Notes under the pieces: model-generated
Told to the model about the DNA's origin: nothing
Database searches by the model: none
The model's input: the letters and a program-made list of their open reading frames with translations, nothing else
Program-made: the position numbers and the translations under genes
Part shown: positions 54,168 to 58,882 of the stretch, piece by piece
How the letters are laid out: every line of letters begins with the position of its first letter
How positions within the stretch are numbered: position 1 is the first letter of the stretch
Origin: a virus
Taxonomy: Duplodnaviria; Caudoviricetes
Virus record (IMG/VR): IMGVR_UViG_3300030095_003814
Coordinates: 1-59,967 of that record
DNA length: 59,967 nt
Strand: one strand, 5' to 3'

Positions 54168-54342
54168 CAGAAACGCAATCATACGTTCTTTTGTTGTGGC
54201 GATCAGCATCATGTTTTTTGCTTGCATCGGAATATTCTACATCGGAAAAACTGTAATTACTGACCCGATCATGGATAAACTCGATACCATGCAAAGATCA
54301 AACGCCGCTAACTTTGGGCAGATCAAGAAAGAACTAAAATGA
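54154..54342 (+). CDS. Small single-TM protein in the lysis cluster
   Basis: N-terminal TM segment. Confidence 0.55.
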   Translation: MNASDRNAIIRSFVVAISIMFFACIGIFYIGKTVITDPIMDKLDTMQRSNAANFGQIKKELK

Positions 54343-54908
54343 ATATCTTTAAGATGTTTACGGGCGGAATTGGCGCGACTGCAAAAGGCATTGCTCGCGG
54401 GGTTGCCACGTTTACAGGCGACAAGGTTCAACAAGAAGATCATCTAACACAAGAACAACAAGCCGTACTTGCTCAGTTTGCATCTGAAAACACGCAGCAT
54501 AGAACTAACCGCACATGGTTTGATGCGTTTGTTGATGGATTAAATCGCCTTCCACGGCCTATTATTGCTCTTGAGGTTATCGCCCTGCCTCATTGGGCTG
54601 TACTTGATCCTGCTGGCTTCTCAGCGGCTATGATGGCGCTTGCTGTAACTCCTGAATGGCTTGCTCTGATTATCGGGCAAGTTATCCTGTTGTTCTTTGG
54701 CGGTCGTATGTTGGATAAATGGCCTCGTAAGTTTGACGCACCAAATGCGAATACCGTTAAGGCGGTTCTGGACGCGCAAGACAAAATAAAAAAGAAAAAG
54801 CGCCCCGATGAAAAAGAATATCAGGACGCTATGAAAAATGATGATCCGTTATCTGAGGAAAATATCAGAGAATGGAACAGGCGGAATAACCCTAATTTTA
54901 AAGGTTAG
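54339..54908 (+). CDS. Holin (GTA 3TM-holin-like)
   Basis: WFDAFVDGLNRLPRP...DPAGF...MALA..PE.L...FFGGR. Confidence 0.82.
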   Translation: MNIFKMFTGGIGATAKGIARGVATFTGDKVQQEDHLTQEQQAVLAQFASENTQHRTNRTWFDAFVDGLNRLPRPIIALEVIALPHWAVLDPAGFSAAMMALAVTPEWLALIIGQVILLFFGGRMLDKWPRKFDAPNANTVKAVLDAQDKIKKKKRPDEKEYQDAMKNDDPLSEENIREWNRRNNPNFKG

Positions 54909-55777
54909 AAAAGCCCCTTACTTTCAAGCAATCCTGCATCAATGTTTTTGATTGCCTGCTTGTAGTACGATGTTTTCAATTCCGCGCCAACGCCTTTTCG
55001 TCCCTTTTGAACTGCTGTGAAAATTTCCGTACCAATACCGGCAAATGGCGTGAATACCGTGTCCCCCGGATTAGACCACAGATCAATGCAACGACGAACA
55101 GGCTCAAGCTGCAACGGGCAAATGTGACGTTCGTCATCACTTTCACGCGCTGCCCGGAATTGCAACGTGTCTGACGGGTCGATATCCATCCACACTGGGC
55201 TTGCGTATTGCTGCCAGACATGTACAGGAAAACTTTCGTTGGTATGCTCTACACGTTCTGGGTTATCGCCCGGTTTGCGTAGAGTTACGATTTTGTCAGG
55301 AATACCATTGCGAGAAATACAGCTATCCTTTTTAAGCTGCTTGTGCAGTAGCCCAATTGCCTTTGTGCGCTGCATCGCGGTTACGGGGTCTTTCCAAATC
55401 ACCACTTCTGAATGATAGATAAACCCTAGTTCCTGTGCTGCACGGATAATTTCCCCCGGAAAATCACGCAACCCGATAAAGCCATCACGCGCCTTGCTGG
55501 TTGGAAGTGCCATGCAATGCATTGAGAACATTCGCCCCGGCATCAATGCGCGATACAATTCTTTCAGCAAAAACTTGAAGTGATCAAAGAATTCATCACT
55601 TGATGCACTGTTACCCATGTCGCGGTCGCTATTTGAATACGTATACAGGCTTTCAAACGGCGGAGACGAAATAGAGTAATGCAGCGAGTTATCAGGCATT
55701 CCTTTCAAAACTTCGATGCAATCACCATTGTAAATAGCGTAATCATCCGTGATGTGTTGATCAATAACTTGGGACAT
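54905..55777 (-). CDS. N4-cytosine/N6-adenine DNA methyltransferase (beta class)
   Basis: SSPPF catalytic motif before the PFAGIG SAM motif; HICPLQL. Confidence 0.9.
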   Translation of the reverse strand: MSQVIDQHITDDYAIYNGDCIEVLKGMPDNSLHYSISSPPFESLYTYSNSDRDMGNSASSDEFFDHFKFLLKELYRALMPGRMFSMHCMALPTSKARDGFIGLRDFPGEIIRAAQELGFIYHSEVVIWKDPVTAMQRTKAIGLLHKQLKKDSCISRNGIPDKIVTLRKPGDNPERVEHTNESFPVHVWQQYASPVWMDIDPSDTLQFRAARESDDERHICPLQLEPVRRCIDLWSNPGDTVFTPFAGIGTEIFTAVQKGRKGVGAELKTSYYKQAIKNIDAGLLESKGLF

Positions 55778-55780
55778 AAA

Positions 55781-57736
55781 TTAACCTCCGATCCAAGTTG
55801 GCAATTTCATATTGATTGTGTTTTCGTATTTCGTTTTGTTGCGCAACGAACCATGCGCGTTAACCTCGTTCAAGTCTTTCATATGTTCAATCATTTTTGA
55901 TTGCATTTCAAGGAATTGTTTTTCCTTACGTTCAATGTTTTTAACAACTTGGCCCTCTGTTTCAGCAGCAATGAAGTGTGCGTTTACGGCGCTCTTTTGC
56001 CCGAAACGGTAGAACCGTCTGATTGCCTGATAAACTTGCTCGTAGCTATCGTTCAGGCCAACAAAGCAAGTATTACTGCAATGTTGTAGATTTAATCCAA
56101 CTCCGCAAATAGAGGTTTTAGTTACTAATATTGGTTTTTCTTGGTTCTTGAAGGATATTAGCTTCTTTTCTTTTTGATCCTCGCTGTCTGCGCCCCTAAT
56201 TGAGATGCATTGATCTCCAAAATACCTTGCTATTTTATCCTGCTCGTCATTCAGATTGCACCATATCACCCAAGGGGTTTGAATGCTCAATGTATTCGGC
56301 AGCTTTCCTGAGGATTTCTGGATTGTCTTTGAATTTACCAAGTCCGAGATTACACCAGTTGCACAGCAATCCCCTAATTCTTCCTGTTCTGTGACAATGG
56401 TCAATTTTGAAGTATTTTGACTTTCCCCCGACTTCTGATGATCCGCATATTTTGCATTTTCCTGCTTGTTGATCAAGCATGATCTCGTATTCTGATTGTC
56501 CAATACCGTAAGTTGACCTAAGTCTTTCGTCTCTTTTTTTGTTTTTACATCTTGATCTTGCTTGTTGTTTGCATTTTTCTCTAAACTCAGGATCTGATTT
56601 GTATCTTTCCCTTCTTGATTTGTTGTATTTTTTTGATTGTTCTGGTGTTCGCTTGTTCCAGTTTTCTTTGTTTTCAGAGTAGTATTTTCGCATGTACTCT
56701 TTGTTTTCGTCACCTGATCTTGATTGTGACCTTCTGCGCTCGCGCTCTTCTGCGCAAGATGCATATTTCTTTCGTCTGTTTTTTGCGTATTCTGGTTTCC
56801 AAGGCATTCTGCCAGTTTATTACTAAAAACACCTGATTGCAACATAATTTCGTAGTTGCAAATAACGTCTACTGCTTTTTTGCATCTTTCCTCAATCGTT
56901 TCTTTACGTGCTGTAATGCGTTCCTGCATGGTATGTGCTTCCATTGGGAACAAAGTAGACAGATCGTTCTGATCATAATCAACGCCAACAGTATGTTGAA
57001 TAATGTTTAGGTTTGGCAGATCATAGCCTTCTGTCTCATAACCGATATCACGCGGATGCTGAAACATAACTGACCAAGTAGACATCCACTGCCAAAACTC
57101 TGACTGAGCATGTCCCTTTAATCGCCACTTTTGCGTTTCGCCACCATCATGCACAAAAAACATTGCAAGCATTTCGGTGTAATTCATAACGCCTAGAAAT
57201 TCCGCGTGATTGCCAATCTCCATAAAGTCGTTAGGCGCTGGCGTGGCGGTAGCAGCGAGACGGAATGGGACAACCTGACATTCTTCAATCAGCATGTTGC
57301 GCGTTTTGCCGGTGAAAGACTTTAGAATACTGCTTTCATCCAATACAACCCCGCCAAATGCAGACATATCAAAGTGCTGCATTTTTTCATAGTTAGTTAC
57401 GTAAATTCCGTTTCTAACGTCTGATTGTTCTTTTGCTTGATGAATTTCAATGCCGAACTTTTCTCCCTCGTCAATAAACTGACCTGATACAGCAAGCGGC
57501 GTTAAAATCAACACGGGCTTTCCGGTATATTCGTTAACCTGTTTTGCCCATTCCATTTCCATGAAACTTTTACCCATGCCGGTGCCAGCAAAAACAGCAG
57601 CGCGACCACGACGCAAAGCCCAACTTGTTACAGCATGTTGAAAATCAAATAGACCGCTGTTCAGACTTGGGACATTTGCAATGCCCGTATCTAAATCAAC
57701 CGCTTGCTTGCGGCGCAAAAAATCTTCGTAATTCAA
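55781..57736 (-). CDS. SF2 (SNF2-like) helicase with an insertion of about 195 aa
   Basis: GTGMGKS, TNYEK, LDESS, TATPAPND, PWVIWC, GLNLQHC, QAIRRFYRFGQ. Confidence 0.88.
   Translation of the reverse strand: MNYEDFLRRKQAVDLDTGIANVPSLNSGLFDFQHAVTSWALRRGRAAVFAGTGMGKSFMEMEWAKQVNEYTGKPVLILTPLAVSGQFIDEGEKFGIEIHQAKEQSDVRNGIYVTNYEKMQHFDMSAFGGVVLDESSILKSFTGKTRNMLIEECQVVPFRLAATATPAPNDFMEIGNHAEFLGVMNYTEMLAMFFVHDGGETQKWRLKGHAQSEFWQWMSTWSVMFQHPRDIGYETEGYDLPNLNIIQHTVGVDYDQNDLSTLFPMEAHTMQERITARKETIEERCKKAVDVICNYEIMLQSGVFSNKLAECLGNQNTQKTDERNMHLAQKSASAEGHNQDQVTKTKSTCENTTLKTKKTGTSEHQNNQKNTTNQEGKDTNQILSLEKNANNKQDQDVKTKKETKDLGQLTVLDNQNTRSCLINKQENAKYADHQKSGESQNTSKLTIVTEQEELGDCCATGVISDLVNSKTIQKSSGKLPNTLSIQTPWVIWCNLNDEQDKIARYFGDQCISIRGADSEDQKEKKLISFKNQEKPILVTKTSICGVGLNLQHCSNTCFVGLNDSYEQVYQAIRRFYRFGQKSAVNAHFIAAETEGQVVKNIERKEKQFLEMQSKMIEHMKDLNEVNAHGSLRNKTKYENTINMKLPTWIGG
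56247..56807 (-). CDS. Endonuclease VII-family homing endonuclease nested out of frame in the helicase gene
   Basis: YGI...EYE.ML..Q.GKCKIC...IDHCHRTGRIRGLLCNWCNLGLGKFKDN...L.KAAEY. Confidence 0.9.
   Translation of the reverse strand: MPWKPEYAKNRRKKYASCAEERERRRSQSRSGDENKEYMRKYYSENKENWNKRTPEQSKKYNKSRRERYKSDPEFREKCKQQARSRCKNKKRDERLRSTYGIGQSEYEIMLDQQAGKCKICGSSEVGGKSKYFKIDHCHRTGRIRGLLCNWCNLGLGKFKDNPEILRKAAEYIEHSNPLGDMVQSE
56808..56842 (-). promoter_or_regulatory. Internal promoter for the nested endonuclease (leaderless)
   Basis: Minus strand TTGCAA (56842-37), 17 nt, TAAACT (56819-14), 6 nt, ATG. Confidence 0.65.
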
Positions 57737-57787
57737 ATTACCCTCCTAAAAGTGATGGCGGCAATTTATACCACCATCTAAACATTG

Positions 57788-57991
57788 TCAAATCAACTCA
57801 TTAACTGTTGGGTATTTAATATCAGGTCTATACCTGATTGCTTGCTGCATAAACTGACGCAACGTCATGCGCTTTCCGCTTGGCGACCGCGCCTCTCCTC
57901 TGTTTTGATCGTATTTGTACCCGTATTTTGTCAGAACCAATTCCGCCTCTTTCACCGGGTTAAAGTCCTGTTTACGCTTTTGCAAGCTCAT
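57788..57991 (-). CDS. Hypothetical protein
   Basis: Coupled ORF. Confidence 0.55.
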   Translation of the reverse strand: MSLQKRKQDFNPVKEAELVLTKYGYKYDQNRGEARSPSGKRMTLRQFMQQAIRYRPDIKYPTVNELI

Positions 57992-58391
57992 TTCTCAATT
58001 CCTCGTAATCAATACCCAAGTGCGCAATCATTACACTAATTGCACCTTCATAAAACTTTTCGAATTCGTCTTGGCCCATACTTTCGAATGCGATTGATTT
58101 AGGTTTTCTCCATGTGTATTCCGTTCCAAGAATAGGCCGATCTTTACAATAGCCCAATTCAATCTTGATTGCATCTAAAAGCGCATCTTCTTTCCAGTCC
58201 GTGGCCTCACACACCAAATGCAACAACGCAAATAGCTTGCAATGATGTTTAAGGTTGCGCGGTCTTTTCGCTTCAATCAGAACAAGCGATCCATCCTTGA
58301 TGCCGTCAAGCCATTCTGCATCGCGTCGGTTTGTTGGTTGCAGCGTATTGCCAACCTTGCGCATGGTGTGTTTTTTAGGCATCTGGGCCAT
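57972..58391 (-). CDS. DUF1367-like protein
   Basis: RPRNLKHH.KLFALL...PKSIAFESM.QDEF..FY. Confidence 0.75.
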   Translation of the reverse strand: MAQMPKKHTMRKVGNTLQPTNRRDAEWLDGIKDGSLVLIEAKRPRNLKHHCKLFALLHLVCEATDWKEDALLDAIKIELGYCKDRPILGTEYTWRKPKSIAFESMGQDEFEKFYEGAISVMIAHLGIDYEELRNELAKA

Positions 58392-58563
58392 CCATCATTG
58401 GCATCCAATGAGTTAATGAATATATAAAATGTCCATAATGAAAATCTTCAAATTCTCCATATTCATCACAATATCTTACCATCAATGGAAACGCTGTGTG
58501 TTTTCTCCATGCAAAAAACAACCTTCCATCCATTGGTGCCGTTTCAATTGGTCGCCATGTCAT
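58375..58563 (-). CDS. DUF551-like protein
   Basis: WRPIETAP.DG...THWMP. Confidence 0.75.
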   Translation of the reverse strand: MTWRPIETAPMDGRLFFAWRKHTAFPLMVRYCDEYGEFEDFHYGHFIYSLTHWMPMMDGPDA

Positions 58564-58882
58564 TTGTAATCCTCCATTGTTCCTTGCACCATTCTAGCAA
58601 GTCATATCCTAACATCTTATCAAACGCCGCTCGTCCCAATGCCTCGTATGACACTTCACTATCAATCGTAATCCTGTGATGACGTGGGCATAATGGCGCA
58701 ATGTATCTGTGATCACGCTTTCCGCCTGCACCATCCTTGACGTGATGCACCTCGGCTGGCATTCCGCACACAAGGCAACCCATATTCGCTATACGCTGCA
58801 TGTGTGCTTTTTCTAGTGCATCTGGTGGGCGCGAACGTTTATCACGAATGCGCCCAACCTTGCGTCCTTTAGTAATTAACAC
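58544..58882 (-). CDS. Ref/DUF968-like HNH-fold nuclease
   Basis: GCLVCG..AEVHH...IAPLCPRHH. Confidence 0.75.
   Translation of the reverse strand: MLITKGRKVGRIRDKRSRPPDALEKAHMQRIANMGCLVCGMPAEVHHVKDGAGGKRDHRYIAPLCPRHHRITIDSEVSYEALGRAAFDKMLGYDLLEWCKEQWRITNDMATN

Follow-up and report, generated by a model that had tools for sequence, protein, structure and literature searches.

A probable splicing-free Endonuclease VII-type homing endonuclease gene nested in a phage SF2 helicase gene with a stop-free host frame

How can a nuclease gene lie in the middle of a DNA helicase gene and leave the helicase reading frame open from end to end? This question is raised by one gene in the complete 59,967-bp virus record IMGVR_UViG_3300030095_003814 (Duplodnaviria; Caudoviricetes), which carries direct terminal repeats at its ends and whose whole length is referred to here as the window; DNA near-identical to it occurs in marine metagenome runs. 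The gene encodes an SF2-type phage helicase, and between its two halves lies an insert that specifies, on the same strand and in a shifted frame, a predicted nuclease of the Endonuclease VII type. Our answer is that this is probably a homing endonuclease gene that does without splicing, with selection keeping the host frame free of stop codons. A previous interpretation made from the letters of the window by themselves (the sequence-only reading) had proposed as much, and we describe below what the comparison of homologous loci adds to it.

Two reading frames on one strand

The features of the locus, with coordinates in the window, lengths in nucleotides (nt) or amino acids (aa), and the source of each assignment, are as follows (ORF, open reading frame).

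55781-57736, minus strand: SF2-type phage DNA helicase ORF, 651 aa, TTG start, stop-free throughout (ORF list and Pfam)
56861-57736, minus strand: helicase part before the insert, aa 1-292, with the last helix ...ERCKKAVDVI (alignment)
56276-56860, minus strand: insert, 585 nt, 195 helicase-frame codons (aa 293-487), rich in Q/K/T/N/S, no stop (alignment)
56808-56860, minus strand: insert leader, 53 nt, upstream of the nuclease ATG, helicase frame only (read from the sequence)
56247-56807, minus strand: nested nuclease ORF of the Endonuclease VII type (His-Me finger), 186 aa, separate ATG start (ORF list and Pfam)
56247-56275, minus strand: dual-coding stretch, 29 nt, helicase PWVIWCNLND on the one hand and nuclease C-terminus plus TGA on the other (read directly)
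55781-56275, minus strand: helicase part after the insert, aa 488-651, RecA-like C-terminal domain (Pfam, alignment and AlphaFold2)

As to the host gene, the Helicase_C domain is matched at residues 490-579 (E 1.4e-08), and a tblastn search with the helicase as query returned 310 phage records annotated as helicase; megablast of the gene against the phage collection gave no matches. The TTG start lines up with the starts of homologues. Alignment with insert-free homologues, and with those that carry an insert at another site, fixed the junctions and placed the borders of the insert at ...KKAVDVI (aa 292) on one side and PWVIWC (aa 488) on the other, though the lack of conservation in the linker leaves the 5′ edge uncertain by a few codons. 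The open 651-aa frame and the roughly 195 extra residues between these two landmarks, both noted in the sequence-only reading, were recovered here. Its site and length for the insert also stood, and only its 5′ edge, at 56870, lay about 10 nt too far out (56860 by our alignment).

In the nested ORF, residues 94-174 match positions 2-81 of the 82 in the Endonuclease_7 profile (PF02945) with 90.7 bits (E 5.6e-26), for which the curated cut-off is 23.6 bits. Among solved structures, the nested protein is related to Hpy99I (3fc3, E 7e-10) and to T4 endonuclease VII (1e7d, E 9.2e-05). Moreover, nine residues (C118, C121, D136, H137, C138, H139, C149, C152, and N153) are invariant among nine relatives, and by analogy with the T4 enzyme they are presumed to serve as zinc ligands or in catalysis. 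By its profile match, the nested ORF belongs to the Endonuclease VII/His-Me finger nucleases and is a predicted nuclease, as had been recognized from its motifs.

The two frames lie one base apart, since the nuclease ATG starts at the third base of a helicase codon, and the nuclease frame is shut by a TAA 12 nt ahead of that ATG. At its other end, the nuclease runs past the insert, as had also been pointed out earlier, and its TGA (56247-56249) falls inside the N-D codons of the conserved helicase sequence CNLNDEQ, 29 nt beyond the insert. These 29 nt of conserved helicase sequence are therefore double-coding. In an AlphaFold2 model of the window's helicase, based on a 20-sequence alignment, the predicted local distance difference test (pLDDT) score is mostly 80-97 in both helicase halves, with a helix at 281-301 ahead of the insert and a strand at 489-493 directly after it, and only 25-31 across insert residues 304-482, which have no secondary structure. 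The helicase-frame product of the insert is thus predicted to be disordered, much as the sequence-only reading had envisaged in proposing a long disordered loop.

The open host frame and the question of splicing

Is the host frame open by chance or through selection? Here, we collected a family of at least 171 loci with the nuclease protein as bait, a set that is hence independent of the host frame. At 29 of the 171 loci, matches to the N- and C-terminal parts of the helicase flank the nuclease, and in all 29 these lie in one frame with no stops in between; the host frame is open as well at two further hosted loci that are cut by contig ends. Inside the insert, then, no helicase-frame stop occurs at any of the 31 helicase-hosted loci, and this over a GC content that ranges across loci from 0.31 to 0.70. 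For comparison, when the frame that lies one base downstream of that of the nuclease is examined, just one of 135 non-nested relatives is stop-free in it (mean, 6.5 stops), as opposed to 27 of the 31 hosted loci. Two of the four exceptions (L098 and L119) carry the helicase in the other shifted frame and are stop-free there, as against 2/135 controls; that other frame averages 12 stops in non-nested relatives. The third (L020) is an artefact of how ORFs are defined in very GC-rich DNA, and in the fourth (L100) the stop falls within the helicase, immediately behind the insert, and none lies in the insert itself. In L100 (L100:2096-3900), moreover, the nuclease is shortened to 142 aa and the stop replaces the conserved W of helicase E-P-W-L-I-W-C, so that this looks like a decaying copy as judged by its sequence.

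When the nuclease ORFs of 10 loci were shuffled synonymously, each locus came out stop-free with a probability of 0.002-0.75, and the product over the 10 is 4e-10. Between members, the third codon positions of the nuclease differ at 43-62% of sites; stops would have built up had there been no selection. Across the family, chance as the cause of the open helicase frame is firmly excluded. This supports the claim of the sequence-only reading that the element spares its host by remaining stop-free in the host frame, for which it had pointed to stop depletion across nested loci as the measure.

Of the two frames, it is that of the nuclease which is better conserved. In each of 210 pairs, the same DNA gave a higher amino-acid identity when translated in the nuclease frame (mean 0.50) than when translated in that of the helicase (0.26), and the differences at nuclease codon positions 1, 2, and 3 were 0.40, 0.37, and 0.62. 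The nuclease frame is under purifying selection, given that it is more conserved and its differences are concentrated at the third position. By these same comparisons, the helicase-frame reading of the insert drifts and is a by-product constrained mainly to stay open.

An alternative way to spare the helicase would be to remove the insert from the RNA, and HNH-type nucleases are indeed commonly carried by phage group I introns. Under this explanation, the insert would be a self-splicing intron (group I or other) with a nuclease ORF, and the open helicase frame would be incidental. Contigs from RNA libraries (X7 and X12) leave room for it in that they cover 56395-56722 in the insert and parts of both helicase halves and span no junction; DNA carry-over into these contigs is possible. 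Against it, no Rfam family was matched at E<=10 on 55500-58000, although an ORF-interrupted intron core could escape such a search, and RNAalifold gave no conserved pairs around the nuclease start. The nuclease ORF takes up all but 53 nt of the insert and itself continues 29 nt past the 3′ junction. Nor does an intron explain why all 31 hosted frames are open when a single one of the 135 free-standing relatives is. A spliced element is improbable here because with splicing there would be no need for an open host frame, and we regard the intron as very unlikely.

Removal as protein would account for the open frame, as this is just what inteins have, and an unusual intein or some other excision at the protein level might be imagined. 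Here, however, Pfam gave no Hint or intein domain at E<=0.01, and alignment showed that the first residue of the insert varies between loci (C, F, I, T, or G) and that the residue after it is P, W, or E (proline in the window) rather than C, S, or T. Furthermore, the helicase-frame sequence is just 26% conserved and predicted to be disordered, and an insert of 195 aa leaves no space for splicing blocks. Protein excision seems to us extremely improbable. The junction residues and domain searches also agree with the earlier remark that neither intein termini nor an intron core are visible, and we infer from the sequence evidence that the insert is removed neither as RNA nor as protein.

Presence, absence and placement of the insert

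If the element homes, alleles with and without it are to be sought at the same site, and two such pairs were found. The first involves DNA contigs from two studies (X5 and X8), in which near-identical natural DNA differs from the window as follows.

56051-56897 (unstranded), 847 nt: swapped for 274 other letters (runs X5 and X8)

The swapped stretch comprises the insert along with 225 nt of helicase sequence downstream (in gene orientation) and 37 nt upstream, and the net change of 573 nt is the length of the insert less a linker of four codons. The flanks of X5 depart from the window at none of 751 nt on one side and at 7 of 1303 nt on the other. The second pair is found in Gordonia phages, where Squiddly (gp64, whose open frame would give 618 aa) and Malisha (gp71) carry the element within a gene whose sole annotation is "DNA helicase" and Holliday (gp68) has an insert-free helicase gene. 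That gene callers would miss the nuclease, as had been anticipated, is seen directly in the Squiddly and Malisha annotations. Between Squiddly and Holliday, amino-acid identity is 91% before the site, 40% in the next 54 aa, and 93% beyond. In two unrelated phage lineages, then, the insert is present or absent at one site and the tract directly downstream has diverged, which fits what sequence comparison would be expected to reveal of homing.

The same nuclease clade also occurs free-standing between an insert-free helicase and a methylase (L101:3004-3549 and L017:2998-3555). These free-standing nucleases start with M-W-K-P-E-Y-A, and upstream of them are a Shine-Dalgarno-like sequence and a TTAACTGG motif. 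In addition, similarity of the nuclease is weakly coupled to that of the helicase (Spearman 0.33, versus 0.67 between the two helicase parts), as judged by rank correlation of pairwise identities alone, with no trees.

An insert profile in the helicase frame was matched by 51 of the 150 best helicase cluster representatives, each called as one long protein, with no matches among 62 insert-free helicase representatives or among 43 representatives of at most 520 aa. The extra segment lacking its nuclease, the finding that the sequence-only reading had named as telling against it, was accordingly looked for and did not turn up in the 62 insert-free representatives. Two insertion sites are seen, namely site A, which is that of the window, and site B, about 50 residues downstream and before the V-L-I-S-K strand; 37 of the 51 representatives were assigned by a landmark pattern and the other 14 by reading rows.

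Might the nested ORF instead be a resident, domesticated phage gene (a junction resolvase, for example) that was overprinted on a tolerated helicase loop and does not home at all? Purifying selection on the nuclease frame would suit such a gene, as would an old and common association with this helicase family (the 51 representatives among 150) and the sequence relationship to T4 endonuclease VII. Yet it accounts poorly for insert-free alleles in near-identical genomes of two lineages, each with a diverged tract beside the site, for the weak coupling of nuclease and helicase similarity, for members of the same clade that are free-standing or at a second site in the same gene, and for relatives that lie out of frame inside terminase inteins. 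We consider a resident gene unlikely.

The favored reading, a nested homing element in a helicase that stays open, would work as follows. A mobile nuclease gene would have inserted into the short linker between the helicase halves, on the same strand and one base out of frame, and it would be removed neither from the RNA nor from the protein, selection keeping the helicase frame stop-free across the 585 nt. The result would be a single 651-aa helicase chain whose folded domains are separated by a disordered loop of about 190 residues, and the nuclease would be made separately from its own ATG. In a mixed infection, the nuclease would be expected to cut insert-free helicase alleles, and repair templated by the insert-bearing genome would carry over the element along with some 160-225 nt of the helicase sequence immediately downstream. 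We infer the nuclease activity and target of the nested protein from its sequence, and likewise the mode in which its translation starts.

How the nuclease start is marked was examined by comparing loci, which brought out one conserved element.

56809-56819, minus strand: conserved DNA motif TAAACTGGCAG, ending 2 nt before the nuclease ATG (comparison of loci)

TAAACTGGCAG is kept across a GC content of 0.39-0.67. Of 28 loci, 15 have YTGGCAR in the 40 nt upstream of the nuclease start (background, 0.023 per 40 nt), and the motif recurs at -8 and about -29, often as two copies about 21 nt apart. A Shine-Dalgarno-like sequence precedes the nuclease start in 11 of the 28. The notion that TAAACTGGCAG pairs with the W-K-P-E codons to hide the start was rejected, as RNAalifold gave 0 pairs (11 sequences) and the third base of the proline codon varies uncompensated.

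Several observations weigh against the favored reading. Taken alone, the window is marginal: the host frame comes out without a stop at a probability of 0.034 when the nuclease ORF is shuffled synonymously and of 0.052 when it is back-translated with the codon usage of the phage itself, so that chance is only weakly excluded for this one locus. The hosted loci are not counts of independent events, because they are related and some are near-duplicates (L001/L002 and L095/L096). The helicase is not always intact, as L100 and L103 carry helicase stops outside the insert, that of L103 at a conserved E further downstream. The X7 and X12 RNA contigs cover no junction, so that the absence of a joined form among them carries no weight. 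A mosaic flank may alternatively come from ordinary recombination, and homing is not implied by the nuclease fold, given that both a junction resolvase and a restriction enzyme are among its Endonuclease VII relatives. Finally, no Shine-Dalgarno-like sequence that would account for expression of the nuclease lies before its ATG in the window, and a candidate internal sigma-70 promoter for a leaderless nuclease mRNA (TTGCAA-17-TAAACT) failed a scan in which the region had 6 promoter-like sites versus 5.1 expected.

The modest probabilities for the window and the helicase stops in two relatives could also be taken to mean that the insert has inactivated the helicase and that the long open frame is chance or irrelevant. 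This is at odds with the family-wide depletion of stops, with the retention of helicase motifs in insert-bearing alleles (48 invariant columns in 20 sequences), and with flanking domains that fold well in the AlphaFold2 model, and we give inactivation hardly any credence.

At site B, cysteine pairs bracket the insert in the helicase frame: a Cys-x-Cys directly follows the 5′ junction, and either a Cys-x-Cys or a Cys-x-x-Cys directly precedes the 3′ junction. Such pairs are found at both insert ends in six of seven site-B loci (L018, L019, L020, L103, L106, and L131; representatives P0040, P0066, P0041, P0113, P0031, P0095, P0118, P0037, P0104, and P0103, among others). Read row by row, 13 of the 17 representatives with an insert at site B have them (of the others, three lack both pairs and one is cut), compared with one of 27 at site A and none of the 62 insert-free helicases. 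The pairs are built from varying nuclease-frame codons, whether in the leader, in the region of the start codon, or at the end, where M-Y-L-R alternates with Y-L-R-L. That the loci differ in the nuclease-frame codons out of which they make the cysteine pairs speaks for selection on the host frame. It is conceivable, and we suggest it tentatively from the sequences, that nested elements not only avoid stops but also adapt actively to the frame of the host, with the four cysteines forming a putative zinc clasp at the base of the loop. An AlphaFold2 model of the L019 site-B protein, with pLDDT of 46-69 around the cysteines versus 25-31 in the loop and isolated bridges at 350, 518-519, and 524, offers a weak hint of such a clasp. 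If true, the element would encode, in the frame of its host, a clasp that ties the base of the loop, which amounts to a structural substitute for splicing.

Genomic context and comparison with known systems

Directly downstream of the helicase in the window is a methylase gene.

54905-55777, minus strand: N6/N4 DNA methylase (PF01555, E 9.5e-15)

The helicase-methylase order is also found in Squiddly, Malisha, Holliday, and L101, and the methylase is a conserved partner of the helicase. At L011, L093, L106, and L119, the helicase is fused in frame to an N6/N4 DNA methylase, which is a separate gene in the window. Just upstream of the helicase start, a candidate promoter (TTGACA, 17 nt, TAAATT) at 57763-57791 (minus strand) is a consensus match only. 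Among neighboring ORFs, that at 58544-58882 (minus strand) has a weak RecA-dependent nuclease-like match (E 1.5e-05, below the Pfam cut-off), and that at 54339-54908 (plus strand) a match to a three-transmembrane holin of the GTA type (E 3.8e-12). In another gene, at L088:2744-3580, an Endonuclease VII relative lies out of frame in a 279-aa ORF, where the N-terminal domain of a dATP/dGTP diphosphohydrolase is matched in two stretches with no intein match; judged by sequence, this may be the same arrangement in a different host gene.

The sequence-only reading regarded this as a different homing strategy, and in that respect it did not hold, as the main text of a 2025 paper describes the same splicing-free strategy for ShiLan, a hidden HNH element in phage methylases (Genes 2025;16:178; PMC11855218). 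As far as that text describes ShiLan, it and the helicase element have in common a same-strand nuclease ORF in the third frame of the host gene with no host-frame stop, the lack of an intron or intein signature, a host-frame product predicted to form a loop, a patchy distribution read as homing, and no clear ribosome-binding site. They differ in the nuclease, which is of the Endonuclease VII family (PF02945) here and, by the paper's description, I-HmuI-like HNH with zinc fingers in ShiLan, and in the host gene, an SF2 helicase here and a methylase there. Beyond what the ShiLan text covers, the helicase element has two insertion sites, its stop depletion is measured against free-standing relatives, and its hosts extend past actinophages to a marine phage, Rhizobium and Mesorhizobium genomes, and Saccharibacteria contigs. 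The terms "endonuclease VII", "Squiddly", and "Malisha" are absent from the text of the ShiLan paper (PMC11855218), its supplements aside.

Section 3.6 of the same paper also describes Pacc40 gp60, a helicase-methylase fusion protein with an out-of-frame AP2/HNH-like product of 160 aa (PMC11855218). There too, according to that section, related free-standing genes stand beside an insert-free gene, like those of L101 and L017 here. Unlike the AP2/HNH-like product of Pacc40, the window's nuclease is an Endonuclease VII, and the two are likened by description. A further parallel comes from a 2025 preprint, which places Endonuclease VII-family nucleases out of frame inside inteins of terminase large subunits. 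In our set, the Endonuclease VII relatives at L054, L060, and L155 lie out of frame inside terminase large subunit inteins, which matches the arrangement given there. The nuclease family and relative frame are shared with these intein-nested cases, as far as they are described; there, the intein removes the insert, whereas here no splicing domain is present.

Free-standing phage homing endonuclease insertions break the host gene into separately translated pieces. An instance is mobE, reportedly a free-standing homing endonuclease in nrdA of Aeromonas phage Aeh1 (Gibb and Edgell 2007, as cited in the preprint). Like mobE-type insertions, the element described here is an HNH-type mobile nuclease in an essential, replication-related gene with probably co-converted flanks; unlike them, the helicase frame runs through.

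Taken together, these loci provide a large and diverse set of examples for a third way, proposed recently, in which homing endonuclease genes occupy essential genes, neither as an intron nor as an intein, and they give a first quantitative control for stop depletion, since all hosted copies have the frame open and hardly any free-standing relative does. They also point to a systematic blind spot of annotation, in that one long "helicase" is called and the nuclease is missed, with the element present in about a third of the closest helicase clusters. Since Squiddly and Holliday can be grown in culture on a laboratory strain of Gordonia, splicing, nuclease expression, and homing are directly testable. 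Our literature searches, supplements and repositories aside, returned no report of an Endonuclease VII nuclease in this helicase. The strategy itself is already known, and the helicase-hosted Endonuclease VII set is a new and large family that follows it with another nuclease, in another host gene, and at two sites.

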